A stretch of 64,000 bases of DNA from an uncultured Gammaproteobacteria bacterium (GCA_964538435.1 CAZIDX010000003.1:110039-174038), one strand, 5' to 3'; positions 11,641 to 62,602 are shown, counted from the first letter of the stretch. Notes: generated by a model from the letters alone, not told the origin. Numbers and translations are program-made.

Positions 11641-11901
11641 ATAATCATCGTAAAATTCTGCTCTTAGTATACCGCAAAAACCCACTCCTTGCAGCCAATC
11701 TCTTGCCAAAGACAAAGCCCCTTGCTACACTTCTCATCGCATTGAGCTATAAAGAAAAGTCGCACTAAACATGTGCATCAAATCTTTCTAGAATTGAGTG
11801 AGATTTCACTGCCCGAACGAGCACCGATTGAGCCGACCTTCCTGGTCGGTGATTGAGGAGCGCAGTGAGAAAGTGAAAGGTCGCCAATTCTAGGAAGATT
11901 T

Positions 11902-11977
11902 GCGGTAGTAGCTCAGTTGGTAGAGCGCTTCCTTGCCAAGGAAGAGGTCGCCGGTTCGAATCCGGTCTACCGCTCCA
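11902..11977 (+). tRNA. tRNA-Gly (anticodon GCC), CCA encoded
   Basis: gcggtagtagctcagttggtagagcgcttccttgccaaggaagaggtcgccggttcgaatccggtctaccgctcca. Confidence 0.9.
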
Positions 11978-33997: not shown

Positions 33998-34125
33998 ATA
34001 CAAATAGTTATTTCGTTCCTTGTAAGCGAGACGAGGTGGCCAAGTCTCAATTTGCAACATCTCCTCGAGCTGGGGCGTTCGACGCCGGGTTCCAGCGAGA
34101 GTGTGATGTTGTGAATTGAGACTTC

Positions 34126-34797
34126 CTATCCAAAATATTTCTCTTTATAAAAACGAATGAGCTCCTCAACCGCAGGCAAACAACCTGGATTCCCAAGCCC
34201 AACCTTAGTCTTTTGCTGAACAAGCTCGATTGTGTGAGCCCCTTCAAGCACAGCCTCCTCGATATCAGAATCCGTAACTTTTGATACAGAATCAATAATT
34301 CGCGCTGATTCCTTGATGATTTTATCAAATTGTTCAGTTCTACGATAGAAATCATTAATCGCATCTCGGAGCGCCTTATCGCACAGCACACTGCAATGAA
34401 ACTTCCTCTGAGGCAAACCTCCAAGACGGCTCATAATGTCTTGCGGTTTAATCTTCCGAGCCTCTTCAAGTGTCATACCACCATTCTCAGTCACCATCAC
34501 ACTCGTCATCGAAGTAGAAGCGATCGCACTCCCACATCCAAACGTTTTCCATTTAAACTCAGTAATCTTTTCCGTCTCAAGATCAACACAAAGCCAAACC
34601 CTAAGCTCATCACCACAGGCAGGAGACCCAACCTTTCCATTCGCATTGAACTGACTCTCATCTACCTCGCCCTTAAGAAAATTCTTCGGATCAAAAAAAT
34701 GTTCCTTCACCACATCCGTATAAAACCAAGACTGAGACTTGTCACGACTAGACACGTCCCCACCTTTTCCCTGAATTGGATCTGATGAATGACTCAT
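34126..34797 (-). CDS. iscU: Fe-S cluster assembly scaffold (IscU/NifU N-terminal domain) with a C-terminal extension
   Basis: ...GSPACGDELRVWL...FGCGSAIASTSM...RKFHCSVL...; the three conserved Cys are in canonical context. Confidence 0.8.
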   Translation of the reverse strand: MSHSSDPIQGKGGDVSSRDKSQSWFYTDVVKEHFFDPKNFLKGEVDESQFNANGKVGSPACGDELRVWLCVDLETEKITEFKWKTFGCGSAIASTSMTSVMVTENGGMTLEEARKIKPQDIMSRLGGLPQRKFHCSVLCDKALRDAINDFYRRTEQFDKIIKESARIIDSVSKVTDSDIEEAVLEGAHTIELVQQKTKVGLGNPGCLPAVEELIRFYKEKYFG

Positions 34798-34819
34798 AAT
34801 TCTTACAAAACCACAGTGA

Positions 34820-34937
34820 GCAACAATGATATTGCTTTGGTTTTAAGTGAGGACGGTCCTAGCACCGAGATCAAGCGCGAAGCGCGCAGAGATCGGGCGC
34901 CGTTCCGCAGCAAAAACCAAAGCAATATCATTGTTGC
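34820..34937 (+). ncRNA. candidate structured RNA or miniature palindromic element, copy 1 (25-bp perfect terminal stem around a 68-nt conserved core)
   Basis: 5' arm gcaacaatgatattgctttggtttt and 3' arm aaaaccaaagcaatatcattgttgc are perfectly complementary. The core is aagtgaggacggtcctagcaccgagatcaagcgcgaagcgcgcagagatcgggcgccgttccgcagca. It lies in the nifS-iscU intergenic space. Confidence 0.45.
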
Positions 34938-34945
34938 GATCCCCC

Positions 34946-36148
34946 TTATTCAAAATATTTCTCATCAACACTCACAGGACTAATACTACGAAGCTTTTCA
35001 ACAAGCGGCGGAAGTGTCTCAAGGACGTAATCAATGTCTTCCTCAGTCGTTCCCTTTCCAAGCGAAAACCGAATTGACCCATGCGCAACCTCATACGGAA
35101 GCCCAAGCGCCAAAATCACATGCGAAGGATCAAGCGATGCACTCGTACACGCACTCCCAGTCGAAGCTGCAATCCCAGCCGCATCAAGGTAAAGCAGAAG
35201 TGCCTCTCCCTCAATATCCATAAACGAAATATTCACATTATTACAAAGCCGTTCTTTTGCACTTCCATTCAACCGAGTTTTCTCTACTCGACTCTGTATC
35301 CCCTCAATAAATTTATCGCGAAGCAAGGTCAACCGTTCCATCTCACTCTGTCGATTCGCCTGTGCCAGCTCAAGCGCCTTGCCAAGCCCCACAATCCCAG
35401 CAACGTTTTCTGTTCCTGGACGAAGACCACGCTCTTGAGCGCCACCAAACTGCAAAGGCTCAAGCTTGACCCCACGCCGAGCATACAAAAGCCCAACACC
35501 TTTTGGTCCATAAATCTTTGAACCGTTGAGTGCAAGCATGTCCGCATGAAGCTTTTCAAGATTCAGTTCCAAATACCCAGCCACCTGACACGCATCAGTG
35601 TGAAACACAAGCTCTGGACGGTTATGCTCTGCGCGCCACTTGCTGATCATGTTCCCAATATCCCGAATCGGCAAGATGGTTCCGATCTCGTTATTTGCAA
35701 ACATGATACTCACAAGAATCGTATCCTCACGAAGCGCTGCCTCAACCTGTTCTACTGTAATCATCCCATCACGATCAGGTTCAAGATACGTCACTTCAAA
35801 CCCCTCCTTCTTCTCAAGATGAAGCACAGCCTCAAGCACAGCATGATGTTCAATCTTTGTTGTGATGATGTGCTTCCCAGCCTGTCTATTCTTCCGCGCA
35901 TACCCCAAGATCGCCAAGTTATCTGATTCAGTTCCACCAGACGTAAACAAAATCTCATCTGGCCGACACGAAAGCACGCCAGCAATTCTTTCTCGAGTCT
36001 CATTCAATGCATCCTTCACCTCTTTCCCCTGCGAGTGAAAACTCGATGGATTCCCAAACCTTTCTTCAAGGTACGGCAACATCACCGCTTTAACCTGTGG
36101 GTCAAGCGGCGTCGTAGCAGCATAATCTAGATAAACGTTTCTTTGCAT
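34946..36148 (-). CDS. cysteine desulfurase (NifS/IscS family)
   Basis: Start at MQRNVYLDYAATTPLDP...; ...SGGTESDNLAI...; and ...SSGSACTSASLDPSHVILALG, the active-site Cys loop. Confidence 0.85.
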   Translation of the reverse strand: MQRNVYLDYAATTPLDPQVKAVMLPYLEERFGNPSSFHSQGKEVKDALNETRERIAGVLSCRPDEILFTSGGTESDNLAILGYARKNRQAGKHIITTKIEHHAVLEAVLHLEKKEGFEVTYLEPDRDGMITVEQVEAALREDTILVSIMFANNEIGTILPIRDIGNMISKWRAEHNRPELVFHTDACQVAGYLELNLEKLHADMLALNGSKIYGPKGVGLLYARRGVKLEPLQFGGAQERGLRPGTENVAGIVGLGKALELAQANRQSEMERLTLLRDKFIEGIQSRVEKTRLNGSAKERLCNNVNISFMDIEGEALLLYLDAAGIAASTGSACTSASLDPSHVILALGLPYEVAHGSIRFSLGKGTTEEDIDYVLETLPPLVEKLRSISPVSVDEKYFE

Positions 36149-36299
36149 AAGCAATAACTCCCCCACCCAACGTGGAGCAAAAGCCTCTAAATTAGCAATA
36201 CCTACTCCAGAAATGTCGTCGATTTCTCCAAGAAAAACGTATTGCAAACACGGCTGAGCGTAACAAAAAAAACCCTATTTAGCAAGGATTCCACCCCAA

Positions 36300-37181
36300 C
36301 TATTTCATCCAAGATAAAAACAGCTCACCAAGATCGATCCCAGCAACCTGCAGCGCCTTTGGAAGCAAAGACTCATTAGTGAGCCCTGGAATCGTATTAA
36401 TTTCAATAAACCAAACTCCTCCTTGCTCATCAACCATCATGTCACTGCGCGAGAGATGCCGCGCTCCCAAAACATCGTGAGCTCGAAGAGCCATCTCATG
36501 AAGCTTTAGCTCCAACTCAGTGTCAATACATGCAGGACAAACCTCATCAGCAAGCGCACTGTCGTACTTGCTTTCAAAATCAAAAAAGTCGTTCTTAGAT
36601 TTAATCTCCACCACCGGCAAAGCCCGATGCTCACCCTCATGCTCAACAACAGCCACAGTAAACTCCCTACCAGTCACAAGATCCTCCACAAGCACACGCT
36701 CACTCTCCGCAAACGCACCCAAAAGCGCATCTGCATGCTGCTCCCCGGTTCGTGCAAGCTGAATCCCGATCGAACTCCCACCATCAAGCGGCTTCACAGC
36801 AACTGGTCTTTCAAAAACGTGATCTTCTCTCTTGTCCACCACAGCCCAATCAGGAGTCTGGATCCCATGCGCGCGAGCAAGTCTCTTTGTCACATCCTTA
36901 TCAAGCCCCATCGCATGCGCACTCACATCTGAAAACACAAACGGAACACCAAGTGTGTTAAGGAGGCCCTGAATCTCGCCACTCTCTCCACCTCGCCCAT
37001 GAAACACAGGTACAGCGCAAGAAATTTCCTCTCGCTCACTCACAAGCCTCTCAAGATCACCAGGAAGATCATACCAACTCAAATCAACATGATCCTCAAG
37101 TGCACCACGCACAGTCTCAGCTGAGCGAAGCGCAACCTCCCGCTCACTACTTGTCCCTCCAGTTAAAATGGCTACGTGCAT
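36300..37181 (-). CDS. ddl: D-alanine--D-alanine ligase
   Basis: MHVAILTGGTSSEREVALRSA..., an ATP-grasp core, and ...FIEINTIPGLT... Confidence 0.85.
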   Translation of the reverse strand: MHVAILTGGTSSEREVALRSAETVRGALEDHVDLSWYDLPGDLERLVSEREEISCAVPVFHGRGGESGEIQGLLNTLGVPFVFSDVSAHAMGLDKDVTKRLARAHGIQTPDWAVVDKREDHVFERPVAVKPLDGGSSIGIQLARTGEQHADALLGAFAESERVLVEDLVTGREFTVAVVEHEGEHRALPVVEIKSKNDFFDFESKYDSALADEVCPACIDTELELKLHEMALRAHDVLGARHLSRSDMMVDEQGGVWFIEINTIPGLTNESLLPKALQVAGIDLGELFLSWMK

Positions 37182-37182
37182 A

Positions 37183-38376
37183 TCAATAAATATCAGTAGT
37201 AGAAAGTGTTTTATGCATCATTAAGAGAATAAATGCAAACGGAACCGTCACAATAAACGGAATAAAGAAATACGTCATCTGAATCGAAATCCGCGACGCG
37301 GCGTACCCAAAAATCAAAACAGTGATTGTCTTAATAATCCCATTCCCAACCTCAATGATCGATAAAAAGCTTGATCTCGACCCTGAAGCAATAAGCTGAT
37401 TACGCACATCATTCATGGATGTTCGCATCACCCCCCAAAGAATCGATGGAAGAATAAGAATCCCTGCAGCAACCCACGGCGATTGAATGAACGCATAAAA
37501 CCCAAGCAAAAACAAAGACCAACCAGCACCAATCGCAAACATCCAAACAGGCGAAACTCTCTTTAGTATCACATGAGCATAGTGAGAACTGATTGTAGTC
37601 AAAAGTCGTTTGCACGCAAACACTGCGCCTAAGTAAACAATAATGAACCCCATCTCTTCCAAGAACAACTGATGGAACTCTGCAATCGCATACACTAAAC
37701 CAAGAAAAAGCGCCTGGTACAACCCAACCCAGAAAAACGGATGACTAAATGACAAAAGATGTTTATTCTTTTGCACCCCCTTCCAGAACCCAGAAAACCC
37801 CTCTTCTTTTTGAACAGAGTGAGTATCATCCCCATCCTTAATCGAATAAATAAAGTAAGCAGCCAGAATAAACTGAAGCACTCCAACCAGAAACGGAAGG
37901 TTAGGATCAACAACATAAAGCACCGAACCAAACGTCAGCATCACAATCCCCATTGCATTTGCAATCGCAAAACTCTGTCCCCAAAACTTCTTATGAAGAT
38001 GCAGCTGCTTTCGCTTCTCAAGAAGCTCATACAAAAACGCATCGTTCGTGCCTGTAAAAAGTGTCCCTGCTCCCCAGTAAAGCGCAGTTGCAATGAGCAT
38101 TCCCCAAAACCCTGATAGCGTAATGTACAAAAGCATCGAAAGCCCCTGGAGCAATGACGAGATAATCAGCGTGCGCTTATGCCCAAAGATATCCGCAATC
38201 GCACCGCTTGGCACCTCAAGCACCAACCCAAGAATTCCTGACACCGCAATCACATAACCAATCTGAGCCAAATCAAGCCCTTGCGAGAGCATGTACACAA
38301 GCACAATCGGCACCACAATCCTTTTGATAAGACCACGGTAAAGCGAGTAGCGATGAAAATCAGTGAGTTTAAACAT
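37183..38376 (-). CDS. MFS transporter
   Basis: 397 aa, ~12 TM helices, with a conserved loop motif after TM2. Confidence 0.65.
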   Translation of the reverse strand: MFKLTDFHRYSLYRGLIKRIVVPIVLVYMLSQGLDLAQIGYVIAVSGILGLVLEVPSGAIADIFGHKRTLIISSLLQGLSMLLYITLSGFWGMLIATALYWGAGTLFTGTNDAFLYELLEKRKQLHLHKKFWGQSFAIANAMGIVMLTFGSVLYVVDPNLPFLVGVLQFILAAYFIYSIKDGDDTHSVQKEEGFSGFWKGVQKNKHLLSFSHPFFWVGLYQALFLGLVYAIAEFHQLFLEEMGFIIVYLGAVFACKRLLTTISSHYAHVILKRVSPVWMFAIGAGWSLFLLGFYAFIQSPWVAAGILILPSILWGVMRTSMNDVRNQLIASGSRSSFLSIIEVGNGIIKTITVLIFGYAASRISIQMTYFFIPFIVTVPFAFILLMMHKTLSTTDIY

Positions 38377-38438
38377 GTAGATAAAGTATAGCAGGGATTG
38401 AAGAATTTCTCTGGATCTGATATTCTCACGCAGGTAAT

Positions 38439-38515
38439 GGCCACGTGGCGAAGTTGGTTAACGCGGGGGACTGCAAATCCTCTATGCGCCGGTTCGAATC
38501 CGGCCGTGGCCTCCA
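38439..38515 (+). tRNA. tRNA-Cys (anticodon GCA), CCA encoded
   Basis: ggccacgtggcgaagttggttaacgcgggggactgcaaatcctctatgcgccggttcgaatccggccgtggcctcca. Confidence 0.9.
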
Positions 38516-38526
38516 TCAACAAACAA

Positions 38527-38557
38527 AACACCTCTACCAATTGGAAGAGGTGTTTTT
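38527..38557 (+). terminator. rho-independent terminator aacacctct..agaggtgttttt after tRNA-Cys
   Basis: 9-bp stem plus T5. Confidence 0.7.
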
Positions 38558-38581
38558 CATATTACTTTCATCTCTTTGAGA

Positions 38582-38699
38582 GCAACAACTAGATCCATTT
38601 GTCTTTAAGTGAGGATGATCCTAGCACCGAGATCAAGCGCGTAGCGCGCAGAGATCGGGCGCCGTTCCGCAACAAAAGACAAGTGGGTCTAGTTGTTGC
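38582..38699 (+). ncRNA. candidate structured RNA or miniature palindromic element, copy 2
   Basis: Same 118-nt architecture as copy 1, with 4 changes in the 68-nt core. The terminal stem has a different sequence but is still complementary, with two G-U wobbles on the plus strand only. The outermost GCAACAA/TTGTTGC is conserved. Confidence 0.45.
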
Positions 38700-38707
38700 A
38701 ATTATCC

Positions 38708-39403
38708 TTAAAACGTTTCAATGGTTGCGTACTGCAATCCAAACGTCTTTGCCTCATCATACTCCTTCATCCACACATCCATCTTGTAATAGTATCGCGC
38801 GTTCATGCGGTCCTCCACATAAAACACACGGTCACCAAACAATTCTGGAATGCGAACCTGAGTTCCCATCGGCAAAAAGTTTGCTGCCACAACATTCTCT
38901 ACATTACGCTCACACACATCAAGCCCTGAGGCTGTGATGCATGGCGTGTCATCTGTCTGCGCAACGTCAGATGTGTACGCTGTAATCGGAATCGTAAATG
39001 AATACCGTGGTGTCGCATTCTCAGCCACAGGCAAACTTCCATACGCAAGCGTATCATTTTGCATTGCCTCAACAAGAAGTGCTGTGGTCTCCGCATCCGG
39101 ATGCGTTAGCTCAAAGAATGGGTCAGCATTAGCAACGGTTGGGAAACAAATATAGACAGCGACCACGAGCACAAACGAGACCCCAGACAAATTAAGTGCA
39201 TGCTTGCGAACTGGACGAACCAAACGCTCAAGCCGAACCCATTGTCCAAGAACTGCGCCAGCGCAAGTGCGCATGTAACACATATCCTCTTCCCAATAAA
39301 TCTTCAATTGTTCTGCCAAGCGGTGAGTATACTCACGCGCAAGTGTCTTGAATGTCTTATTCCACATACCCCACACATTCCTCCTGGAAATATCCAGATG
39401 CAT
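38708..39403 (-). CDS. 3D-domain (MltA/YocH-like) cell-wall protein
   Basis: ...ITAYTSDVAQTDDTPCITASGLDVCE..VVAANFLPMGTQVRIPELFGDRVFYVEDRMNARY... The likely start is the Met at 39274. Confidence 0.55.
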   Translation of the reverse strand: MHLDISRRNVWGMWNKTFKTLAREYTHRLAEQLKIYWEEDMCYMRTCAGAVLGQWVRLERLVRPVRKHALNLSGVSFVLVVAVYICFPTVANADPFFELTHPDAETTALLVEAMQNDTLAYGSLPVAENATPRYSFTIPITAYTSDVAQTDDTPCITASGLDVCERNVENVVAANFLPMGTQVRIPELFGDRVFYVEDRMNARYYYKMDVWMKEYDEAKTFGLQYATIETF

Positions 39404-45468: not shown

Positions 45469-45515
45469 AACACGATACAAAAACTCGTACGTACGAGAAT
45501 TTGTGTCGTGTTTTT
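45469..45515 (+). terminator. nested-palindrome rho-independent terminator after PBP1A
   Basis: aacacgatacaaaaactcgtacgtacgagaatttgtgtcgtgttttt. Confidence 0.65.
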
Positions 45516-45609
45516 GATTTGATGCTTGACAAAAACATAAAAAAGCATATTCTTGCTCTACAGCAAACAGAAAGAGGTGCTCGACCGGATGGTCGAAGAA
45601 GGGCCGAAG

Positions 45610-45879
45610 ATGAAATTCTCCCGGCCAAACATGATGTCGGAAATCTTCTACCTAAACGGAAAAGAGATTCGCGACAACGACACCCTCATGATCAAATGGC
45701 CGGATGGAACCGAAGAGCTTCACTGCGTCAAACGCCAACGGATCCGAAGTTTCTTTTCCCCATCCTTCATCCGGTACTGGATCATGATCAAGCACAACGA
45801 AGCTCTAATCAAGGTAACACTCAAGCGGTCAAGACCAGACCTCCTCATGGCCTGGCCCGAGAAACCCCAAGAACCCTGA
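45610..45879 (+). CDS. small hypothetical protein (MKF... family; paralog of the N-terminus of 47110..47655); high-GC island
   Basis: Both paralogs start MKF after a GGAGGG/GAAGGG RBS and share LxIxWxxGT (...TLMIKWPDGTEEL.. versus ..ILFIEWENGTQTL..). Confidence 0.4.
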   Translation: MKFSRPNMMSEIFYLNGKEIRDNDTLMIKWPDGTEELHCVKRQRIRSFFSPSFIRYWIMIKHNEALIKVTLKRSRPDLLMAWPEKPQEP

Positions 45880-46015
45880 CACGCACCGAGTCCTTAAACT
45901 CGGCCTGCCCGCCGAAGCTTTAGCAAAGGCGGGTTTTCGTATTGATCTATTGACAAAACAAGGAAAATCCGTAAAGTCCAAACCACTGCATCAAACGCAG
46001 ATATGGGAGGAAACC

Positions 46016-46912
46016 ATGTTCGAAGCCTTGCTGCTCGTCATCCCCGCCTGGGGACTGCTACTCACAGGAATCATCTTCCTCGCACTCTTCTTCTTCATCG
46101 AGTTCGAGCGCCCTGGTTGGGCCACCATCTCGGTCATCCTCACGATCGCCGTGCTCCAGATCGGTAACATCTGGGACTCGGGTGTGAACGTCATCGGACT
46201 CCTGATCGAGCACCCCTTCTACGCACTCCTGGCCTTCTGCGCCTGGTTTGTGATCGGAGGGTTCTGGTCCGTGGGCAAGTGGTGGTTCTTTGTGCGTCGC
46301 CTGCGCGACAAGTACGAAGAGAAGAAGCGTCGGTTCCTACTCTCGCACGGAATCAAGGACACCCTCACCATCCCGGACGAGCTCAAGGAGCGCTTCCTCT
46401 ACGAGAACTACCTCCACGAGTACGACCGTGCCATCAACACGCTACTCAGAGCGTTCCCGGACTACAGCAACGCCGCCTCACGAGTCAACGACCGTGTCGG
46501 TGGCGGAACCGACCTGACAGCCACCGCAACGCATTTCGGAGTCAACGAAGAAGCTCTGCGCGACCTGGCCACGTTCACCAACGCTCGCCCAGACGATCGC
46601 AAGGACCTGCTGTCCCTGAACCTACCCGATGAAATGAAGGCTAAGTTCAGCGCTGAGCTGAGCGGCCCGGAGATGCGCGCAGCCATCGTCCCCTCTGCTC
46701 GGGACCACAAGTGGCGCATCATGACATGGATGGCCTGGTGGCCCTGGTCCATGCTCTGGACCCTGCTCAACGACCCCATCCGCCGCATCTGGCGCTGGGT
46801 CTGGAAGAACCTGCAAAAGACGTTTGCGAGCATCGCCACAAGCGCGTTCCGCAGCGTCGACGACGACCTGGTCAGCACCCACGAGACTCCTACCAAGGAC
46901 CTCGAGGCCTGA
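46016..46912 (+). CDS. hypothetical membrane protein (3-4 N-terminal TM helices plus a cytoplasmic domain); high-GC island
   Basis: GGGAGG RBS then MFEALLLVIPAWGLLLTGIIF...; the track start 45950 is rejected. Confidence 0.45.
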   Translation: MFEALLLVIPAWGLLLTGIIFLALFFFIEFERPGWATISVILTIAVLQIGNIWDSGVNVIGLLIEHPFYALLAFCAWFVIGGFWSVGKWWFFVRRLRDKYEEKKRRFLLSHGIKDTLTIPDELKERFLYENYLHEYDRAINTLLRAFPDYSNAASRVNDRVGGGTDLTATATHFGVNEEALRDLATFTNARPDDRKDLLSLNLPDEMKAKFSAELSGPEMRAAIVPSARDHKWRIMTWMAWWPWSMLWTLLNDPIRRIWRWVWKNLQKTFASIATSAFRSVDDDLVSTHETPTKDLEA

Positions 46913-47109
46913 CCCACGCACGATCCCACTCGCACACCCCGCGACCGAGGGCTCGCCCGCCACAGCTCACTAGAGCAAAGGCGGGTTTTCTAATTGACAC
47001 AAAAACCTAAAAATGATAGTTTTTTCAGTCCAGATTCGCCTGAACCCAGCTGGTTCTGTTAGTCGAAATAAGATGATATCTGTTTTCTTTTTCTGACCAG
47101 GAGGGTCAG

Positions 47110-47655
47110 ATGAAGTTCGAAGAACTACGTATCGGGAAGGGTCTGAGCATCCTCCTTGGAGACCGTGTCCTCGTGCCCGGCAATATCCTGTTCATCGAAT
47201 GGGAGAATGGCACACAGACCCTCGCCCAGATCCTCGAGAGCACGGACATCAGCCGGGACAGCTACGTGATCGATGCAGAGGCCATCTGGTTCGAGATCCA
47301 GAATCTCGTCAACAACCAGAACGCTGGCGTCCTCCGCAGCGGCAAGTGCCGCGCCGCGTTCGTGGCCGAAGGCGGAGAGATCCGCTTCGCCAGGCCCGTG
47401 GGCGCGGACAAGAACTTCACGCTCCGCGAGCGCCGTCTGGCCAACTTCCAGTGGGTTCTGGTGCGCTGGCCGAACAAGGCTGTGAGCGCGCACCGTGTCC
47501 GCCGCGAGCAGCGCACCGCGCGCCACTACGGTCAGGCCTTCGCTGAAACCACCTGGCACTACTGGCTCGAGATCTGGCACAACGGTCACCTGATCTGCGA
47601 GCCAATCACCAGCCAGACCAAGCTGCGGCTCTGCCACATCCCCAAGCCCGCGTAG
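47110..47655 (+). CDS. hypothetical protein (MKF... family paralog); high-GC island
   Basis: RBS ggaggg, then MKFEELRIGKGLSILLGDRVLVPGNILFIEWENGT... Confidence 0.45.
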   Translation: MKFEELRIGKGLSILLGDRVLVPGNILFIEWENGTQTLAQILESTDISRDSYVIDAEAIWFEIQNLVNNQNAGVLRSGKCRAAFVAEGGEIRFARPVGADKNFTLRERRLANFQWVLVRWPNKAVSAHRVRREQRTARHYGQAFAETTWHYWLEIWHNGHLICEPITSQTKLRLCHIPKPA

Positions 47656-47682
47656 CCCTCGAGCTCGCGAGCAACGCAACGA

Positions 47683-47751
47683 CACGCCCCCGGGCGTGTT
47701 TCAGTTTTCAAACCAAAAAACCCTGCCTTCCGGCAGGGAGGCAGGGTTTTT
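47683..47751. terminator. pair of convergent terminators (acacgcccccgggcgtgt+T; aaaaaccctgcc...ggcagggttttt)
   Basis: Two GC hairpins with flanking T/A runs, between the plus-strand gene ending at 47655 and the minus-strand gene ending at 47753. Confidence 0.6.
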
Positions 47752-47752
47752 C

Positions 47753-48310
47753 TTACACAACATCGAACCCCTCAAGCCGAGGATAGTAATCTGGCTGATG
47801 AAAATCTGGCTTTTCCCCAGGAACAGGGCTAAGCGCCAAATGATTCCCAGCAAGAATCGCAAACGCGTTCATTGCTCGAATATTCTCTGGAAGCACATCC
47901 CAAGGAAGCACAATGCGACTCCTCCACATCTTCTCATCAGTACGCTCGAACTGCACAAGCGGCTCAAAACGATCAAACTCCTGACTCCTATGATGAATAC
48001 GATCAAACCCCAAGAAAAGCCAATGCCCACCTGCACCAAGCTCAAGCTCAATATACTCATGCCCAGGCCCAACAAGAAAAAGCTCAACAACATCAAACTC
48101 CCAAAGCCCATCCACCCGAGTTCCCATAGGCACCTGCGGCACGCTCTGCTCATGAAGCATCGGCGAAACCACAGTAACATCAAGACCTTCTCTGCTCCGA
48201 GTCAGCGTCACTTTTGCCCAAAGCCGATCATCCCCGCACTCTCGCCCATTCCAAAGCTTATCAATCTTCAATGTGAGCCCATCTGGGCTTTTAGGAATCA
48301 TAAAACTCAT
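47753..48310 (-). CDS. hypothetical protein
   Basis: 185-aa ORF with no recognised motif. Confidence 0.4.
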   Translation of the reverse strand: MSFMIPKSPDGLTLKIDKLWNGRECGDDRLWAKVTLTRSREGLDVTVVSPMLHEQSVPQVPMGTRVDGLWEFDVVELFLVGPGHEYIELELGAGGHWLFLGFDRIHHRSQEFDRFEPLVQFERTDEKMWRSRIVLPWDVLPENIRAMNAFAILAGNHLALSPVPGEKPDFHQPDYYPRLEGFDVV

Positions 48311-48387
48311 ACAATATCCACTAAATCAGGTCTCGACTTCTCTGTAAAGCAAAAACTCGAGCCATAGCCCGAGTTTTTTTGTTTTTA

Positions 48388-49635
48388 CTATTCTTCTGTC
48401 TCCTCCTCAACCTCTTCTTCCATATCAACCTCCCCCATCTCTTCATCTTCCTCGCTCTCATCGAGAGCCTCACTATCTTCGACAACTTCTTCATCCTCAA
48501 CCACCTCTTCAACCTCTTCTACAACTGGTTCATTAAGGCGAATAAACTCACCGCCTGTCACTTGCAAGAGTGATGGCTCAAAATCAGTGTTTCCATTCTC
48601 GTCAAAACTAAACGTTCCAAGCGCACCGCTCCAAGCATTGATCTGAGAACCTAGGTATTCAGCAACATCTTCTCCACCATTCTCAATAGCTTCTGCAAGC
48701 AAGTACACACTGTCATACGCAGCTACACCAACCACAGGATCACTTGGCAACGTCTCGTAAAGCCCCAAGTATGATTCAAGGAACAGACTTGTCTTCTCAC
48801 TAGCAGGAAGCTGAACCGCTGTCACAACAAGCTCTTCGTAAAGACTTAGTGTCTCTTCGCTCATCTGAACCATAATAAGCTCAGTGCTTCCATATACTCC
48901 AACATTCATCCAGCTTGTTGAAAGCGCCTCAAGCACAACCTGACCTGTTTCCCCAGAGCCTGGCAAAATATATACAGCATTTGGATTCTCTGCGCGAACA
49001 GTAGCCATGAGCTCAGTCATGTCGGTCTCGCTATCAAACGCATGTGCAGTGACCACATCGTCGCCATAGGCAACTGTTAGACCATCAATATACACCTGTG
49101 ACTCATCTGACTCTTCGTAAAGAACAGCCATTCGATCAAGACCAGCCTCTTTTGCATGCTCTGCAATTAGGAGCGTTTCCTGTGCTTTTGTCGGATACAA
49201 AGAGAACACATTCGCAGAAGACTCTTCCATTGGGCTAAGCGCCAATGGTGAGAGATAAACCACACCTGACTCCTTTGCAAACGCTGCAAGAGCATCTGCC
49301 TCTAAAAGACATTCCCCTCCTAGTACGTACGACACCCCATGAGTCTCCACAAGCTCCTGTGCTCGCGCACTTGCCTCTTCAGCACTGCAAGCACCATCTT
49401 GGTACACAAACTCGATTGTGTGACCATTCACTCCTCCTTGTTCATTAATCTGAGCAGCAGCTAAATCATAGGATCGCTGCAAATCTGATGCTGTCTCCCC
49501 ATTCTGTGAAGCCACAACACCAATCGTAAGGGTCTTATCAAACGAAAAAGGACCAAGAGTAAAGTACACAACACCGAGAATGATCAAGGCAATTCCGATC
49601 GCCCACATCAAACCCGTATTCGATGATTTCGCCAT
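48388..49635 (-). CDS. periplasmic-binding-protein type I ABC substrate-binding protein (Liv-like) with a ~50-aa polyacidic C-terminal tail
   Basis: N-terminal TM/signal anchor, then LTIGVVASQNGETA... (PBP-1 fold pattern). Tail EEVEEVVEDEEVVEDSEALDESEEDEEMGEVDMEEEVEEETEE. Confidence 0.65.
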   Translation of the reverse strand: MAKSSNTGLMWAIGIALIILGVVYFTLGPFSFDKTLTIGVVASQNGETASDLQRSYDLAAAQINEQGGVNGHTIEFVYQDGACSAEEASARAQELVETHGVSYVLGGECLLEADALAAFAKESGVVYLSPLALSPMEESSANVFSLYPTKAQETLLIAEHAKEAGLDRMAVLYEESDESQVYIDGLTVAYGDDVVTAHAFDSETDMTELMATVRAENPNAVYILPGSGETGQVVLEALSTSWMNVGVYGSTELIMVQMSEETLSLYEELVVTAVQLPASEKTSLFLESYLGLYETLPSDPVVGVAAYDSVYLLAEAIENGGEDVAEYLGSQINAWSGALGTFSFDENGNTDFEPSLLQVTGGEFIRLNEPVVEEVEEVVEDEEVVEDSEALDESEEDEEMGEVDMEEEVEEETEE

Positions 49636-49658: not shown

Positions 49659-50795
49659 TTATTGTTTTATCGGCATGACAACGTAACGATACGCGTCAGT
49701 GTCGTTATTAGAAGACAAAAGACAAGGGTTCCCAGCATCAATCATTTCAAACAAAATCTGATCAGACCCAATTGCATTTAACCCATCAAGCAAGTAACGA
49801 AAATTCACCGTAACATTGTTATTCACCCCTGAAACATCTCCACTACAATTCGTTTTATTCTTCCCACGCGTAGCATCTGTTGCACTCACAGAAAGTGTTT
49901 TTGCTTCTGCATCAAGCTCCAAAGTAATATCAAAGAGCCCTTGGCGAGAGAACAAAGAAGCTGTTTTTACAGCCTTAATCACATCATCGCGATCAAGAAC
50001 AGCTTGGGTCTGGAACTGGGTGGGGATAATCTGTTGGTAGTCTGGATAATCCTCTTCAATCGTTCGAGAGATAAGTTCAACTGGTCCATACATAAACACA
50101 ACCTGGTTTGAACTAAGGCTCATGGTGATGGTTGCAGGTAAATCCACTTCATCTTTGAACACAGATAATATTCGACTCACCTCAGACAGACTCTTAGAAG
50201 GAATAACCAACCTAAGCTCTTCTTCAACACCGCTCACAACAGGAATCGTTGTCTCAGAGAGCCTGTAAGAATCTGTTGAAGCAAGTGTAAGCCTCCCCTC
50301 ACCTTCATGAAGATAAAACTTAAACGCCACACCTGTAAGCTCAGGCCTTGATTCGTTTGTTGCTACAGAAAAAAGCGTTTGCCCAAGCGCCTTTCGAAAA
50401 TCATCAACAGGAATCTGAAAAGTGATCTGACCCTCAACCTTCGGAACGAGTGGAAACTCAGAAGCAGCTAACCCATTAATCTGTGTTGAGTGTGTTCCAC
50501 AATTAACAGCAACTGTCTGATCATCAACATCAAGATCAATTGTCTCATTTGGAAGTAGTGTCACGTAATCAAAAAATAACTTTGATGGAATAGTGAATTC
50601 ACCTGGTTCATCCACCTTTCCTCTAACCGTACAGTTCACAGCCATCTCAAGATTTGTTGCTGTAAATCTAATTGCTCCTCCTTCTGCCTTCACAAGAACA
50701 TTCTGTAAGATAGGAAGGTTCACATTCTTCGTCATCAAATGAGAAGTGATTGAAAGTCCTTGGTGAAGATTTTCCTTTGTGCAAGAGAGCTTCAT
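49659..50795 (-). CDS. dnaN: DNA polymerase III beta sliding clamp
   Basis: 378 aa with the three-domain clamp pattern. The N-terminal MKLSCTKENLHQGLSITSHL...LPILQNVLVKA is canonical. Confidence 0.9.
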   Translation of the reverse strand: MKLSCTKENLHQGLSITSHLMTKNVNLPILQNVLVKAEGGAIRFTATNLEMAVNCTVRGKVDEPGEFTIPSKLFFDYVTLLPNETIDLDVDDQTVAVNCGTHSTQINGLAASEFPLVPKVEGQITFQIPVDDFRKALGQTLFSVATNESRPELTGVAFKFYLHEGEGRLTLASTDSYRLSETTIPVVSGVEEELRLVIPSKSLSEVSRILSVFKDEVDLPATITMSLSSNQVVFMYGPVELISRTIEEDYPDYQQIIPTQFQTQAVLDRDDVIKAVKTASLFSRQGLFDITLELDAEAKTLSVSATDATRGKNKTNCSGDVSGVNNNVTVNFRYLLDGLNAIGSDQILFEMIDAGNPCLLSSNNDTDAYRYVVMPIKQ

Positions 50796-51055
50796 ATTTA
50801 TAAAGGAAATATATATTTAGAAAAAGTAATAGTAATAAGGGGTGTGGATGGCGGGGATAAATCAATTCAAGACTGATTTATTGGGCCGAACCCACCTGTG
50901 CAAATGTGCAAAACCATGTGCTTAAACACGGGGTGAAACTGGGATGAATTTTTCCATTTTTCAACCCTCAATTTCTTCAGCAAGTTATCCCTATTCCTAA
51001 CCACAGGCTTTTCCCATGACTCTTCCCGATTCTTTCCCCAGGGATAAGGTGTGGA
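50796..51055. other. candidate oriC segment (dnaA-dnaN intergenic) with DnaA-box-like 9-mers and an AT-rich unwinding stretch
   Basis: AT-rich aaatatatatttagaaaaagtaatagtaat. Boxes tgtggatgg (50843), ttatcccta (50985), tgtggatta (51050) and ggggataaa. Confidence 0.5.
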
Positions 51056-52486
51056 TTAGGTTGTGTAGAGTCTCTGCTTAATAAGTTCAAGATCATGCTG
51101 CAACTTTTCATCCTCTAATAAACAGTTTGAGATCTTATCATACGCATGCATAGCTGTTGTGTGATCTCGTCCACCAAGCTCTGTTCCTATAGACGGGTAA
51201 CTCGACTTCATCTCCTCTCGCATAAGGTACATCACGATCTGCCGAGGGAAAGCCAGGCGTTTTTGCCTGCTTTTTCCAAGCAAATCTTCAATAGCCACAT
51301 CAAAGTAGATGGCAACAGTATGAATAAGCTGTTTAGGAGTAACCGTCTTTTTCGTCGAAGTTGGCTGGAAGCTTGTAAGAATCGGCTTCACACTCTCCAT
51401 GTTTGGTCGTGCATTCTTAAACTGGTGGAAAGCAATAATCTTGTTTAATGCACCCTCAAGCTCACGCACATTTGTCTGAACAAGTGTTGCAACATGATGC
51501 AAAATTTCACGCTCTAGCTGATAAGCCTTCTCGCGACACTTAGCTTCCAGGATTGCCACGCGCGTCTCAAAGTCTGGAGAACCAACATCTGCTAGCATTC
51601 CACACTCAAACCGAGAGACAAGACGGTCTTCAAGCGCTGGAATCGCCTTTGGAGGCCTGTCAGAAGAGATGACAATCTGTTTGTTGTTCTGATAAAGCTG
51701 GTTAAACGTGTGAAAAAACTCTTCTTGAGTACCTTCTTTACCTGTAATGAACTGAATATCATCAACAAGGAGCACATCAACAGTTCGATAACGATTTTTA
51801 AACTCTCCAATACGCCCAGACCGAAGCGCACTGATAAAATCATTTGTGAAGCGCTCACAAGTTACATATAAAATCTTTGTCTGCGGATTCTTTCGAATAA
51901 GTTCATTCCCCACAGCTTGTAAAAGGTGAGTTTTTCCAAGACCAACACCACCATAGAGAAACAATGGGTTGTACACACCGCCTGGCTGTTGAGAAACCGC
52001 CTGTGAAGCAGCATGCGCGAGCTCATTCTGTTTACCTACAACAAAAGTGTGGAAGGCATACTTATTATTAAGAGAGAACTCTCCAGACCTGATTTCTCGC
52101 GGCTCAGCTCTTTGAGGAGTCTGAAGGTTTTGTGTAGGCGAAGCAGGTGTATTAGAAAAACCAACGGTTTCTTCTTCCTTTTCAAACATAGGCACTGACT
52201 GTGGAGCAGCTTGCTTTGTTTCCACACGGTAAGTGATTGTTTTAACAGATCCGTTGGTTAACTCCTGAAGAGACTTCAAAATCTCCTTTGCATATTTCTT
52301 TTCAAGCCACGCCTTTGTAAACATGTTTGGCACACCAATCACCGCAGATGTTTCATCCACATCTGAAATGAACGTGTTTTTGAACCAGGTTGTGAAATTG
52401 GCCTTGCTAAGTGCAAGTTCAAGTTCACCAAGCACTGCTTGCCAAAGCTCTGTGGTGTTCATAGGGCGAGTAGAAAAGTCCTCCAT
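51056..52486 (-). CDS. dnaA: chromosomal replication initiator DnaA
   Basis: ...NPLFLYGGVGLGKTHLLQAVGN... (Walker A), ...LLVDDIQFITGKE..., and a C-terminal DNA-binding domain. Confidence 0.9.
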   Translation of the reverse strand: MEDFSTRPMNTTELWQAVLGELELALSKANFTTWFKNTFISDVDETSAVIGVPNMFTKAWLEKKYAKEILKSLQELTNGSVKTITYRVETKQAAPQSVPMFEKEEETVGFSNTPASPTQNLQTPQRAEPREIRSGEFSLNNKYAFHTFVVGKQNELAHAASQAVSQQPGGVYNPLFLYGGVGLGKTHLLQAVGNELIRKNPQTKILYVTCERFTNDFISALRSGRIGEFKNRYRTVDVLLVDDIQFITGKEGTQEEFFHTFNQLYQNNKQIVISSDRPPKAIPALEDRLVSRFECGMLADVGSPDFETRVAILEAKCREKAYQLEREILHHVATLVQTNVRELEGALNKIIAFHQFKNARPNMESVKPILTSFQPTSTKKTVTPKQLIHTVAIYFDVAIEDLLGKSRQKRLAFPRQIVMYLMREEMKSSYPSIGTELGGRDHTTAMHAYDKISNCLLEDEKLQHDLELIKQRLYTT

Positions 52487-52510: not shown

Positions 52511-52605
52511 GGATTATCCCGCACGTGGGTCTTAGTTTAGACTATTTATCCACATGTGAGCAAGTACCCCCTCCCTGTGTATAGGGGTTGATCATTTGTG
52601 GATAA
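52511..52605. promoter_or_regulatory. DnaA boxes upstream of dnaA (perfect TTATCCACA at 52546-52554, perfect TGTGGATAA at 52597-52605, TTATCCCGC at 52514-52522)
   Basis: Exact matches to the consensus DnaA box in both orientations. Confidence 0.7.
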
Positions 52606-56023: not shown

Positions 56024-56071
56024 ATAAGAAAACCCCACAGGCATCCGTGGCTTCACGGTTGCTTGTGGGGT
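56024..56071 (-). terminator. rho-independent terminator (minus strand) at the left boundary of the 56-64 kb high-GC island
   Basis: The reverse complement is ccccacaagcaaccgtgaagccacggatgcctgtgggg followed by ttttcttatcc. Confidence 0.6.
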
Positions 56072-56080
56072 GGTGTGTTG

Positions 56081-57778
56081 CTACTGACCGAGCGTGCCTC
56101 GGTCCGAGCAATGGTTGGTCCAGAGTTGTTCGATGCCCGCGCAGACGTCGGGTGGGGTGACTTGCGGCACGATGGCCAGGTCTGTCACGTTGATCTGCAC
56201 CTGCCCATCAGGCTCGACCTCTTCGCTGCGCAACCACGCGAACGTGGCCTCGCGCGTCTCGAACGGACCGTGCACCTCGTTGGTCTTGGAGTCCACGAAC
56301 ACCGTAGCGACCACGCGAGCGTAGTCCTCCGGGGTGATCGAGAGCATCCAGAACAGGCGATCCTGCCCCTTGGGTGTGACCGGCCTCGGTTCCACGATGC
56401 GGTAGGTGCCGCTAGCGTTCTTACCACTTCCCTCGTACCAGACGTAGTTGGGGAGGGACTTGGCGTACGAGATCACCTTGCGTGGACCTTGCAGGTTCGC
56501 AGGGCGACCTTCGATATCGTAGCGGTAGACCTGCCGCTCGCCAGTCTTGGCGTTGATCGTGTAGATCCGCATGAGCGAGAAGGCATCACCATCAGGCTCG
56601 ACCGTGGCCAGGTACTGGTAGGTGCTGTCCTGCATAGGCAGGAAGAACGGCATCTGCTCCTTCCCTGGGAGAGGAGGGATCTCGATCTTGCCAGGGCGGC
56701 GCACGACACCGAACCACATCTGCGCGAGCATGAAGCTGCCAGCATCGTAGCGCTGCGAGTAGATGTAGTTCTTAGCCATCTTCTCCGGGAACAGACGGCT
56801 GGTGACCTGGAGTCGCTCATCGACAGCTGCCTGCTCCGGGCTCAGATCTTCGACGGTTCCATCGGGATGGAAGATCGCGACACCTCCCCATCTGGGAACC
56901 AGGATACCCCACCAGAAGCGATAGCCGATGTAGGGAACCACACCCACGATCTCAGTGACTTCACCTTGCTCGTCGTAGAGTGGGGCGTAGTAGATCTCGG
57001 GATAGGTCTTGAAGAAGCCCACCTCCCAGATCAACTTGCGGTGGATGTCGTCGAAGATCTCCATGTCCTCACCCCACTTGAAGGGGGTGGTGGTCATGGT
57101 CTCGACGCGCTGTCCGTTCTCGCTGGTTCCGCCATCATCGAAGTACATGAAGCCTTCGTTCTTCTCCAGCAGTGCATTCCACATCCCCTGAGGGACAAGT
57201 GGCGCGATGTAGTCGACGCCGTTCTCACTGCCGATCGGTCGCGTCTCACCTGGGGTGAACTGCGAGGTCTGCGTGCGGCGCACGATCTCTTCAGCAGCCA
57301 CCTGGGCCGGGGTGTAGCGCACCAGCTCGTTGGAGACAAGAGGCATCTGGTCGGTTTCCACGAACTGGGAGTCGCGGTAGACCTGGACCCAGACAGCACC
57401 TTTCATGAACCCGACCACGAACAAGGAAACGAACACAGCGAATCCCATCGCAGTGATCACGATTGGGTTGATCCAACCACGAATCCCTTCTCCCCTGACC
57501 ACGTAGCGCTTGACGAAGCGGAAGGCCAGGTACATGCAGGCAAGACCAGCCAGAATAGCAGGTGCCTGGAGGATGATGACCTCGAAGGTCCAGTGGTGGA
57601 TCCACACCGGTGCCAGCTTGTAGCAGACGTAGAAGATCACAGCGCCCGGGAAGAGCATTCCGAAGTAGTTGGCGAAGAAGAAGCGCATCAGACGATGGTA
57701 CACGGAGGTTCCTGTGTACTTCTTCTCAGCACCCTTCTTGACCTTCCTGATGATGTTCCAGAGATCGAGCGGATTCAT
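56081..57778 (-). CDS. hypothetical polytopic membrane protein with a large extracytoplasmic domain; high-GC island
   Basis: 565 aa, several N-terminal TM helices, 4-nt overlap with the upstream M48 peptidase gene. The opposite-strand ORF 56063..57874 is rejected. Confidence 0.5.
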   Translation of the reverse strand: MNPLDLWNIIRKVKKGAEKKYTGTSVYHRLMRFFFANYFGMLFPGAVIFYVCYKLAPVWIHHWTFEVIILQAPAILAGLACMYLAFRFVKRYVVRGEGIRGWINPIVITAMGFAVFVSLFVVGFMKGAVWVQVYRDSQFVETDQMPLVSNELVRYTPAQVAAEEIVRRTQTSQFTPGETRPIGSENGVDYIAPLVPQGMWNALLEKNEGFMYFDDGGTSENGQRVETMTTTPFKWGEDMEIFDDIHRKLIWEVGFFKTYPEIYYAPLYDEQGEVTEIVGVVPYIGYRFWWGILVPRWGGVAIFHPDGTVEDLSPEQAAVDERLQVTSRLFPEKMAKNYIYSQRYDAGSFMLAQMWFGVVRRPGKIEIPPLPGKEQMPFFLPMQDSTYQYLATVEPDGDAFSLMRIYTINAKTGERQVYRYDIEGRPANLQGPRKVISYAKSLPNYVWYEGSGKNASGTYRIVEPRPVTPKGQDRLFWMLSITPEDYARVVATVFVDSKTNEVHGPFETREATFAWLRSEEVEPDGQVQINVTDLAIVPQVTPPDVCAGIEQLWTNHCSDRGTLGQ

Positions 57779-58677
57779 GCGTGGCTTTCCTCCAGCTGCT
57801 TGAGCATGGTGATTCTGTTGGACATGTTTGGGTGGCTGAGCAGGAGCTCGTCCATCTGCGGTCGTCGCAGTTGACCTAGCGGGCTCTTCTTGCCTTGGTT
57901 GCTCTCATCCTTGTACCAGGCCTCCATCTTCTTGAAAGCGCTGATCAAAGGTTGGACCTCACCAGTCAAGTGTGCGCTGTAGGCATCGGCTGCGTATTCG
58001 CGCAGTTGTGTGATACCTGCTGCGACCACACGGGGGAAGTAGTTGGCGAGCTCGATGGCGATCGCGATCAGTAGCGCAAGGCGACCGACCTTCATCATCT
58101 GGTTGGTGAAGTTGTTGAGAACCGTCATGGTGATACCGATGATGGTCATCAAGGCCGTGTCTCGTGAGCGGATGTGTCCGATCTCATGAGCGAGCACAGC
58201 CTCAACTTCGTCATCATCGAGGATCTCCAGAAGCGGCTGTGTGACTGCCACCCCAGAGCCCCCCATGATTCCACTCCCAAACGCGAACGCGTTGGGCATC
58301 TCCATCTTGGAGACAAACAAGGTGGGGGTGTACTTCAGGCCAGAGCGCTCCACCAGTCGCTTGAGCATGGGGAGGAGGCGCTTTGACTGCTCCTCGCTCG
58401 GGGTCTCGCAGTCCATCAGAGCGATCACGATACGACCGCTGTTGAGGAAGATCAGCGTCTGCACAACCGTGATGGTTACGAGCAGACTGATCACAGCGGG
58501 CGGCTTGAGGAATCGCATCCCCACAGCCGAGACAATCAACACGACCACGAACAGGAAGATGAAGAACAACCACGAGTTGTGTTTGTGCTCCTTCCATTCC
58601 TGGAGTGCTCGCGCTTTATCGATGCCAGTTTTGGGCATGTTCTGCTCCTTTTCGTTGTGAAGAACGACGCGAAACAT
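57775..58677 (-). CDS. M48-family zinc metallopeptidase (HtpX-like)
   Basis: N-terminal TM helices, and ...VEAVLAHEIGHIRSRD... (HExxH) with the downstream E. Confidence 0.7.
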   Translation of the reverse strand: MFRVVLHNEKEQNMPKTGIDKARALQEWKEHKHNSWLFFIFLFVVVLIVSAVGMRFLKPPAVISLLVTITVVQTLIFLNSGRIVIALMDCETPSEEQSKRLLPMLKRLVERSGLKYTPTLFVSKMEMPNAFAFGSGIMGGSGVAVTQPLLEILDDDEVEAVLAHEIGHIRSRDTALMTIIGITMTVLNNFTNQMMKVGRLALLIAIAIELANYFPRVVAAGITQLREYAADAYSAHLTGEVQPLISAFKKMEAWYKDESNQGKKSPLGQLRRPQMDELLLSHPNMSNRITMLKQLEESHA

Positions 58678-58767
58678 TAGCTTTTTTCAAAGGTTTTGTC
58701 AAGGAAACAACGCAATAAGAAAACCCCACAGAGCGCGACTACTCGCTGTCTCTATGGGGTCGTTGCT

Positions 58768-60834: not shown

Positions 60835-60927
60835 TCCACTCTCCTCCTCAGCTTCTGACAAGGACTGGAAACACAATGTTTCCAGCTCTTGTTGAAAGCG
60901 GGGACAAGAGTGTTGTCCCCACACGCA

Positions 60928-62475: not shown

Positions 62476-62602
62476 GGGCAGCCTCCTCGCTTGCGAAAAA
62501 GGGCTAATTTCTCAGTAAACTAAGGAGAACTTGACGCACTCCTTAGAAGATAACGAGATTATCAGTGAAAAACACTTCTGTCAAGCATAAAACCTCGCTC
62601 TA

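Follow-up and report, generated by a model that had tools for sequence, protein, structure and literature searches.

A candidate MITE-like family of 118-bp palindromic insertion elements, present in two copies next to stop codons in an Uhrbacteria-like genome of the Patescibacteria

Bacterial insertion elements that resemble miniature inverted-repeat transposable elements (MITEs) include the ERIC, YPAL, Correia and REPIN families. The ERIC hairpin is co-transcribed with its flanking genes and alters the stability of their mRNA depending on its orientation (PMC2229807). YPAL elements have target duplications of 3-26 bp, their targets adjoin dyad symmetries, and the comparison of filled and empty sites indicated recent mobility (PMC2229807). 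The Correia (NEMIS) elements of Neisseria are also co-transcribed and their 24-26 bp stem has been proposed as a target of RNase III that modulates neighbouring genes (PMC2229807). REPINs are moved in trans by a single-copy enzyme and are proposed to transpose in the form of folded single-stranded DNA that carries an asymmetric single-stranded tail, and compensatory changes across their hairpin were reported to be common (PMC3116915). Here we describe a 118-nt hairpin element found twice in a 64,000-nt stretch of DNA (GCA_964538435.1, CAZIDX010000003.1:110039-174038; hereafter the window), whose IscU homologues group the source organism with Candidatus Uhrbacteria-like Patescibacteria. We give a probability of about 0.5 to the explanation that the two copies belong to a lineage-specific new family of ~118 bp non-coding palindromic insertion elements of the MITE-like class, an assignment made because the size, the lack of coding capacity, the terminal inverted repeats and the filled versus empty sites all agree with it.

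Copy 1 (E1) occupies 34820-34937 at the nifS-iscU junction and copy 2 (E2) occupies 38582-38699, between the stop codon of a gene for a 219-aa protein (38708-38710, - strand) and a bidirectional terminator-like palindrome. The two lie 3.8 kb apart in the same orientation and are described on the + strand, which folds better, the mRNA of the flanking genes being the - strand. In E1 an outer conserved stem (34820-34826/34931-34937) and a variable inner stem (34827-34844/34913-34930) enclose a core at 34845-34912; the core of E2 is at 38607-38674. Sequence comparison and folding confirmed a preliminary description of this DNA, which had reported two copies at these positions with a shared 68-nt core and a complementary 25-bp stem. 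The core (element positions 26-93) is identical at 64 of 68 positions, with + strand differences at 35, 37, 61 and 91. The same description held that the stem differs outside its outermost 7 bp (GCAACAA/TTGTTGC), which are indeed the same in both copies. In the inner 18 bp eight pairs are altered on both arms and two on one arm (U-A to U.G), with none broken; the inner stems are not wholly different, however, as 10 of the 18 positions are common to both copies. A 19-nt word from the core occurs exactly twice in the window against an expectation of 0.05. Short DNA palindromes (AGGAC-G-GTCCT / AGGAT-G-ATCCT and GCGCG-NAG-CGCGC) and a GAGATC direct repeat lie within the core. Repeat finding, blastn and a covariance model run with its filters off detected no further copy within the window. 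Against 243 CTAG words expected from base composition the window has only 76, a strong depletion, yet there are three in copy 2 and one in copy 1. Enrichment of GATC was considered as a mark of foreign origin and rejected, GATC not being avoided in the genome (404 observed, 409 by Markov expectation).

Comparison with related loci identifies both copies as lineage-specific insertions, because both sites are empty in relatives. In two fully syntenic loci, L005 and L006 (IscU 91% identical), the TAA of nifS is followed by one base and then the ATG of iscU. The nifS and iscU genes overlap in L007 (IscU 88%) and in nine further loci, L031-L039 (IscU 80-82%), and in the closest relative found, a contig of JGI 3300072015 (IscU 94%, Ddl 90%), nifS runs into iscU by gene layout. 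Site 1 is empty in all of the syntenic relatives examined, which span IscU identities of 80-94%. Site 2 is empty in L005, the sole relative with an alignable spacer, where 7 nt separate the stop codon from the conserved terminator versus 147 nt in the window. This terminator-like palindrome (38525-38556), which is common to tRNA-Cys (38439-38515, +) and the 219-aa gene, was already present before the insertion and is kept in L005.

At site 1 some 148 nt were inserted and at site 2 some 143 nt, made up in each case of the 118-nt hairpin, a tail of 21-22 nt on the 5' side of the + strand and 4-8 nt on the other side. The 22-nt tail of E1 (34798-34819, +) fills the space between the iscU start codon (34795-34797, -) and the hairpin. 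That of E2 (~21 nt, 38561-38581, +) was recognised as co-inserted by alignment with the empty site of L005. Neither tail is common to the other copy, and the two are not recognisably alike (p = 0.13). On the opposite side 8 nt (GATCCCCC; 34938-34945, +) lead from the E1 stem to the nifS stop codon (34946-34948, -) and were also inserted, whereas at site 2 the E2 stem and the TAA that ends the 219-aa gene are 8 nt apart (38700-38707, +), of which about four (AATT) are inserted and ATCC is homologous to L005. Each stem therefore begins exactly 8 nt past the TAA stop codon of a - strand gene, although these eight bases differ in origin, all being inserted at site 1 and half of them native at site 2. 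Judged by the general size of a ribosome footprint, the foot of the hairpin would fall at about the edge of the terminating ribosome. Target-site duplications, which the preliminary description had proposed to look for, have a possible trace at site 1, where the tail matches the 3' end of nifS at 17/22 positions (shuffle p = 0.0055 before correction for ~7 comparisons). By analogy with YPAL this tail may be a decayed long target duplication; site 2 shows no counterpart. Insertion 3' of a TTAC or TCAT word in the style of IS200/IS605 was rejected, as the sequence after the word is not conserved between the copies.

Differences number 4 of 68 in the core versus 8 of 18 per arm in the inner stem (Fisher p = 2.5e-4), and the outer 7 bp are identical at 7/7 (p ~0.016 at the identity of the inner stem). 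Four-fold degenerate sites compared between the window and L005 provided a neutral yardstick, at 56.4% identity (n = 1084). The identity of the core is far above this level (binomial p = 4e-12) and that of the inner stem (10/18) is at it. The insertions are later than the split from relatives that are closer than L005. Divergence in place of two initially identical copies can therefore hardly explain the stem differences. The source copies probably had differing stems before they were inserted, which would imply a pool of variants; the alternative is that the stems change faster than neutral sites. The rules of the family are to keep the core, to keep the 7-bp tips and to keep the remaining stem paired. 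Such a pattern is probably what would be expected of a unit recognised as a folded single strand by way of its loop and its foot.

Each 118-nt unit folds as a single rod-like hairpin of -66.9 kcal/mol (copy 1) or -62.1 kcal/mol (copy 2), with z scores of -11.6 and -9.1 and none of 200 shuffles equally stable. The 25-bp closing stem has 25/25 Watson-Crick pairs in copy 1, and 23 Watson-Crick plus two U.G pairs in copy 2. Both of the irregular pairs in copy 2 are U.G on the + strand and A.C on the - strand, and helix 28-38/80-89 has three G.U pairs on the + strand that are conserved in both copies. In the fold of the - strand five or six G.U pairs become A.C mismatches. As RNA the folds of the + strand have an advantage of 4.2 and 7.9 kcal/mol over those of the - strand; with DNA parameters the advantage is ~3 kcal/mol. 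The U-G wobbles had been taken to show that the + strand is the RNA; these are two events only (p = 0.25), and some support is added by the three conserved G.U pairs and by the greater stability. The fold models modestly favour the + strand as the folding strand because of all three observations, a preference that fits a + strand RNA and a + strand single-stranded DNA equally.

Core substitutions 61 and 91 sit in loops of the fold. The other two fall in the AGGAC region, which had been described as an RNA hairpin, AGGAC-G-GUCCU, with changes that preserve pairing. This proposal failed, as a loop of 1 nt is impossible and the hairpin is unused in the minimum free energy folds. At best it would form a 4-bp stem with a triloop, in which case both substitutions are in the loop, and forcing this version costs 8.6 (copy 1) and 1.6 kcal/mol (copy 2) relative to the minimum free energy rod. 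Within the rod the two changes differ in effect, as the first turns a C-G pair into U.G and so preserves pairing, while a G-C pair is lost through the second. Structure-preserving variation had also been regarded as the hallmark of a functional RNA. The covariation is present only in the long inverted repeat, however, and compensatory changes are also common in mobile DNA hairpins. Moreover, template switching is known to convert long quasi-palindromes into perfect palindromes. With such compensation reported as common in REPIN hairpins (PMC3116915), the compensated stem does not point specifically to a functional RNA, even where it is perfect as in copy 1 (25/25). In a long perfect inverted repeat the same covariation signature arises from processes at the level of the DNA and from selection on a transposition intermediate of single-stranded DNA.

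Attempts to assign the element to a known RNA family or to a coding sequence were negative. With Rfam 15 at the gathering threshold the window gave rRNA and tRNA matches only, and in E-value mode the two copies gave only generic hairpins below threshold (MIR171_2 at 22 bits versus a gathering threshold of 65, PyrR at 22 versus 54). The Rfam comparison suggested in the preliminary description has thus produced no family that matches the element, and the reported lack of coding potential and of a retron reverse transcriptase holds within the window. Only a single reading frame of the six runs through copy 1 without a stop; it is interrupted by a TAG in copy 2, and of the four core substitutions three would change the amino acid in it. 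Every one of the six frames has either stops or no conservation. Peptides from the core (concatenated six-frame) had no match among 5.8 billion proteins, and a 64-aa open reading frame across copy 1 had a single chance match, to a repeat protein, among 1.84 billion representatives. A retron msr-msd was rejected, there being no reverse transcriptase in the window and the flanking genes being nifS, iscU, tRNA-Cys and the conserved 219-aa gene.

The extent of the family was investigated with exact patterns based on the most conserved blocks of the core. A scan of 185,579 species-representative genomes in GTDB gave 4 matches, JGI metagenomes gave 22 and IMG/VR, with 4 patterns, gave 3; all were attributed to chance, as they had no similarity beyond the pattern itself. 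Exact-pattern scans would miss diverged members, but a widely conserved core should still have matched. Phage and plasmid collections had no match by blastn. A covariance model (R1) built from the two copies, as had been recommended earlier, was run on the window and on 127 kb of relatives' loci. It recovered the two copies plus generic hairpins at E > 0.01 in the window, and nothing in the relatives' loci. Orthologues of the element that could be used to examine phylogenetic covariation were absent from the genome collections searched.

There is nevertheless a sign of a further copy in assembly data. The Logan contigs from run SRR8146440 match the window at every base, yet they end inside both copies. 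In - strand element coordinates the ends fall at 31-mers 28-58 and 52-82 of copy 2 and at 23-53 and 28-58 of copy 1, and the core differences between the copies lie at 28, 58, 82 and 84. These contigs were presumably built with k = 31, and the boundaries do fall exactly on 31-mers anchored at variable positions. The copies share no exact run longer than 29 nt and therefore cannot, with k = 31, branch on each other. A single extra sequence accounts for all four breaks if, on the - strand, it agrees with copy 1 at 28 (C) and with copy 2 at 58 (A), departs from copy 2 at 82 (thus not T) and departs at stem position 23 from the T common to both known copies. This points to at least one further family member, with a mosaic core haplotype and another stem, located elsewhere in the genome or in a co-occurring strain.

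Two other hairpins in the window were compared with the element. One, at 11779-11902 (+), is a rod-like hairpin of 124 nt with an 18-bp closing stem, and its last base is the first of tRNA-Gly (11902-11977). AGTGAG opens its core, which also contains AGCACCGA, followed by an apical GC helix between the two units of a direct repeat (GATTGA...GATTGA). Both AGTGAG and AGCACCGA are common to this hairpin and the element core and the layout is similar, but the similarity is not significant; it was rejected as a distant third member after local and global alignment against shuffles (p = 0.12-0.2) and an R1 score of 10 bits. The other lies in the iscU-ferredoxin spacer (34042-34124) and has a 20-bp stem; it was rejected as a relative of the element since it has no significant similarity to it. 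At the same place L005 has a hairpin (L005:10677-10775) with a wholly different perfect 22-bp stem, the more distant L031-L039 have a gene for a 75-aa NifU-domain protein (PF01106) in the spacer instead, and L007 has neither gene nor hairpin. The hairpin-bearing iscU-ferredoxin spacers showed no detectable trace of this 75-aa gene.

The neighbouring protein genes are all on the - strand, where the order is the conserved 219-aa gene, copy 2, the terminator-like palindrome, tRNA-Cys (+), an MFS transporter, D-Ala-D-Ala ligase (Ddl), NifS, copy 1, NifU/IscU, ferredoxin and an FAD oxidoreductase. Copy 1 is inside the operon, and copy 2 is between a gene and its terminator, i.e. in the 3' untranslated region of the 219-aa gene. 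Because of these positions both copies should, judged by gene context, be carried in - strand transcripts. A consensus scan found neither a sigma-70-type promoter nor an intrinsic terminator at either copy on either strand, and there is no U-tract 3' of the hairpin on the + strand at either. A -10-like hexamer (CATAAT / CATATT), spotted by eye, is present 18-19 nt upstream of each hairpin on the + strand. Half of each hexamer is supplied by the flanking CAT, which is ATG read on the other strand, so that the hexamers may be accidental and deserve little weight. No Shine-Dalgarno-like motif was seen upstream of 27 genes inspected (e.g. at 5594-5623 and 38377-38406), and in several genes of the window a TATAAT-like box stands 7-9 nt ahead of the ATG, an arrangement suggestive of leaderless transcripts.

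The preliminary description had offered a novel non-coding RNA or an RNA-like miniature mobile element. The mobile or duplicative part of this is upheld by the empty sites, the orientation, the stop spacing and the implied further copy; in favour of a non-coding RNA gene, no Rfam family, promoter, terminator or homologue in the genomes searched was found. The element is below 300 bp (118 bp) and non-coding, has a 25-bp terminal inverted repeat and occupies sites that are empty elsewhere, as in the MITE-like class. In terms of dispersed copies there are two in 64 kb, with at least one more implied by the assembly breakpoints, and neither an autonomous relative nor a trans-acting transposase with matching ends is encoded in the window. 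From these patterns we infer mobility by way of a single-stranded fold, a protein acting in trans, co-transcription and an effect on mRNA. The element would spread via a folded single-stranded intermediate, single-stranded DNA being likelier than RNA. This intermediate would be handled by a protein encoded elsewhere that reads the near-invariant 68-nt core and the invariant 7-bp ends. The 18 bp between them would need just to pair, and it is proposed that they vary between copies yet stay complementary because pairing alone is required. Surviving insertions would sit in the few non-coding bases of a compact genome, directly past stop codons. There the element would probably be a passive passenger in - strand transcripts, namely the nifS-iscU operon mRNA and the 3' untranslated region of the 219-aa gene. 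As a hairpin of -54 to -63 kcal/mol in these transcripts it would probably be a determinant of processing or stability, for example as a target for a double-strand RNase or as a block to 3' exonucleases.

Several observations count against an insertion element of this kind. The most conserved part is the centre, whereas in known MITEs and REPINs it is the ends. There is no clean target-site duplication; tail 2 has no likeness to its flank (p = 0.71), there is no TA duplication, and the unshared tails of 21-22 nt are left unaccounted for. No reverse transcriptase, transposase, recombinase or integrase was detected in the 64-kb window with Pfam, PHROGs, NCBIfam or PADLOC, so that no mobilising enzyme is at hand there. 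The exact-pattern scans of the 185,579 genomes, the JGI metagenomes and IMG/VR contained no family member, and just two copies are sequenced, the third being deduced and not read. A further consideration is age, since if the copies are old a core that is 94% identical at both loci would argue for selection at the level of the host, and so for function, and not for a selfish passenger.

A domesticated cis-acting RNA element is a possible but doubtful alternative. The host would keep the hairpin for mRNA processing or stability on the - strand, where it might, for example, uncouple nifS from iscU or guard the 3' end of the 219-aa mRNA, and the core may bind a specific protein. Gene context places both copies in - strand transcripts, there is no promoter or terminator between nifS and iscU, copy 2 is upstream of its gene's terminator, the core is much more conserved than neutral sites, and the 8-nt stop spacing is identical despite the differing origin of the bases; ERIC, with its orientation-dependent change in the stability of flanking transcripts, is a precedent (PMC2229807). 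Yet it is the - strand that folds worse, with five or six A.C mismatches and a loss of 4.2 and 7.9 kcal/mol, the nearest relatives manage without the element at both sites, and for stabilising an mRNA or presenting a site to a double-strand RNase a stem would be required but no conserved core of 68 nt. The better folding of the + strand could instead reflect an independent, possibly mobile, structured non-coding RNA gene on that strand, with a functional core and the long stem as a protective closing helix. On the + strand all irregularities of the stem are G.U pairs, three conserved G.U pairs lie in helix 28-38/80-89, substitutions 61 and 91 are in loops, and a -10-like hexamer precedes each hairpin, similar boxes being present near many start codons of the window that have no Shine-Dalgarno sequence. 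This gene is unlikely, given that there is no consensus promoter or terminator and no + strand U-tract after the hairpin, that the + strand runs antisense to the operon at site 1 and at site 2 lies behind a terminator, that there is no Rfam family, and that no homologue was found in the other genomes searched, so that there is no phylogenetic covariation. The hexamers, with half of their bases from the flanking CAT, are perhaps accidental, and the G.T/G.U evidence for the strand fits + strand single-stranded DNA equally.

A role for the DNA itself is suggested by the core palindromes and the GAGATC direct repeat, and by the fact that the two substitutions in the first palindrome preserve its symmetry. 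The element would then be a protein-binding module, double-stranded or cruciform, for a regulator or a nucleoid protein, duplicated upstream of MFS-ddl-nifS and again of iscU, and on the - strand both copies do precede genes of one cluster. Relatives have the same operon without it, however, a 25-bp perfect inverted repeat has no obvious role around a binding site, there is no likeness to parS or DnaA boxes, and the tRNA gene and terminator separate copy 2 from the MFS gene, which makes such a module highly improbable. Equally hard to credit is a one-off local duplication, segmental or by template-switch repair, of an immobile and functionless hairpin. It would suit two copies 3.8 kb apart in the same orientation in a genome that has several unrelated long intergenic hairpins. 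It cannot give eight fully compensated stem differences beside a core that is 94% identical, and it leaves unexplained both the two separate clean insertions beside stop codons and the evidence for a third variant in the assembly graph. A more far-reaching idea, for which the odds are poor, is that of a new structure-dependent mobile unit in Patescibacteria, or a structured RNA carried by one, that would move without any of the known transposase families. The core and the 7-bp ends would serve as the handle for an enzyme and the 18-bp inner stem would be freely re-writable or even programmable, as a guide or a target duplex, and more than a helix that drifts.

Other features of the window were recorded during the analysis. 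The orientation of tRNA-Cys varies among syntenic relatives, being with the flanking genes in L005 (6541-6617) and L037 (8035-8110) and opposite to them in the window, L007 (840-916) and L031 (6460-6536); these flips suggest repeated local inversion. A 123-nt rod (-75.9 kcal/mol) is located at 1858-1980 in the 5S-23S spacer and a 161-nt structure closed by a 15-bp stem at 1288-1448, downstream of the 5S gene; both may be processing stems or further insertions. Alignment of the 23S rRNA (1991-5105, -) to the bacterial model reveals two expansion segments, 56 and 59 nt long, close to the 5' domain. About 4 kb at 45501-49635, between a PBP gene and dnaN, contain four open reading frames without a family match and a periplasmic binding protein. 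This region may be an inserted island, PBP and dnaN being adjacent in L037. Large proteins without a family match (603, 139, 515 and >443 aa) are encoded at 56063-64000, together with a 718-aa protein with a GHKL/MORC-type ATPase domain (PF13589), and PADLOC had no matches in this cluster. An inverted pair of DnaA-box-like words (TTATCCACA) at 52546-52605 adjoins dnaA and dnaN (49659-52486), and because of this a replication origin is probably to be placed at ~52.5 kb. The copies of the element are 14-18 kb from this putative origin, on the side where - strand genes run with the replication fork.

The genomes of Patescibacteria (the candidate phyla radiation) are small and tightly packed and are thought to be very poor in repeated or mobile DNA. 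A recent hairpin insertion in the essential Fe-S cluster operon (nifS/iscU) would mean that these genomes continue to acquire small insertions of a selfish or regulatory kind, and it provides a natural case of tolerance of a hairpin of about -60 kcal/mol between genes that formerly abutted. A caveat of wider application is that fully compensated differences between the stems of two paralogous inverted-repeat copies do not by themselves speak for a functional RNA. The invariant centre and tips, with a stem that is free to vary, are a clue to what a mobilising factor recognises.

Comparison with the described systems brings out both resemblances and differences. Integron attC sites are likewise imperfect palindromes of comparable length directly past a stop codon, and are recognised as folded single strands in which sequence is conserved over only ~7 bp per end and elsewhere it is mostly the structure that is kept. 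An attC site was nevertheless rejected, as GCAACAA/TTGTTGC contain AAC...GTT but the ends fail RYYYAAC / GTTRRRY in the paired register, the flanking bases neither fitting the consensus nor pairing. The centre is variable in attC and conserved here, the upstream genes (nifS and the 219-aa gene) are core genes present in element-free relatives and not cassettes, and the window has no integron integrase. REPINs, which are REP doublets associated with the RAYT tyrosine transposases, are similar in being hairpin-forming non-autonomous units (~70-110 nt) with frequent compensatory changes. Their GTAG/CGTC-tagged arms are conserved and their spacer or loop is variable, whereas the reverse is found here, without such a tag, in far fewer copies and with no RAYT or IS200/IS605 TnpA (Y1 transposase) in the window; membership of the REPIN/RAYT system was rejected. 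Correia elements are also small palindromic insertion elements, but are set apart by terminal repeats conserved over their full length, TA duplications, IHF sites, promoter parts and hundreds of copies.

The resemblance to ERIC (IRU), the 127-bp imperfect palindromes of enterobacteria, extends to a similar size, a whole unit whose 5' and 3' ends pair to give a single long stem-loop, a conserved terminal inverted repeat of ~7 bp, the lack of coding capacity and a location in transcribed intergenic DNA. There is no sequence similarity to ERIC, which has TA ends and TA target duplications that are missing here, is present in tens to hundreds of copies as opposed to two (plus at least one implied), and is conserved over its whole consensus and not mostly in the centre; the phylum here is Patescibacteria. 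YPAL (RU-2), the 168-bp element of Yersinia, also differs in sequence, in that its inverted repeats are internal, and in that any duplications here are heavily decayed at best and undetectable at site 2. Like the present element, however, YPAL has no TA termini and is not A+T-rich, and the unshared flanks of 4-22 nt, with a possible 22-nt copy of the nifS end, match its untidy style of insertion.

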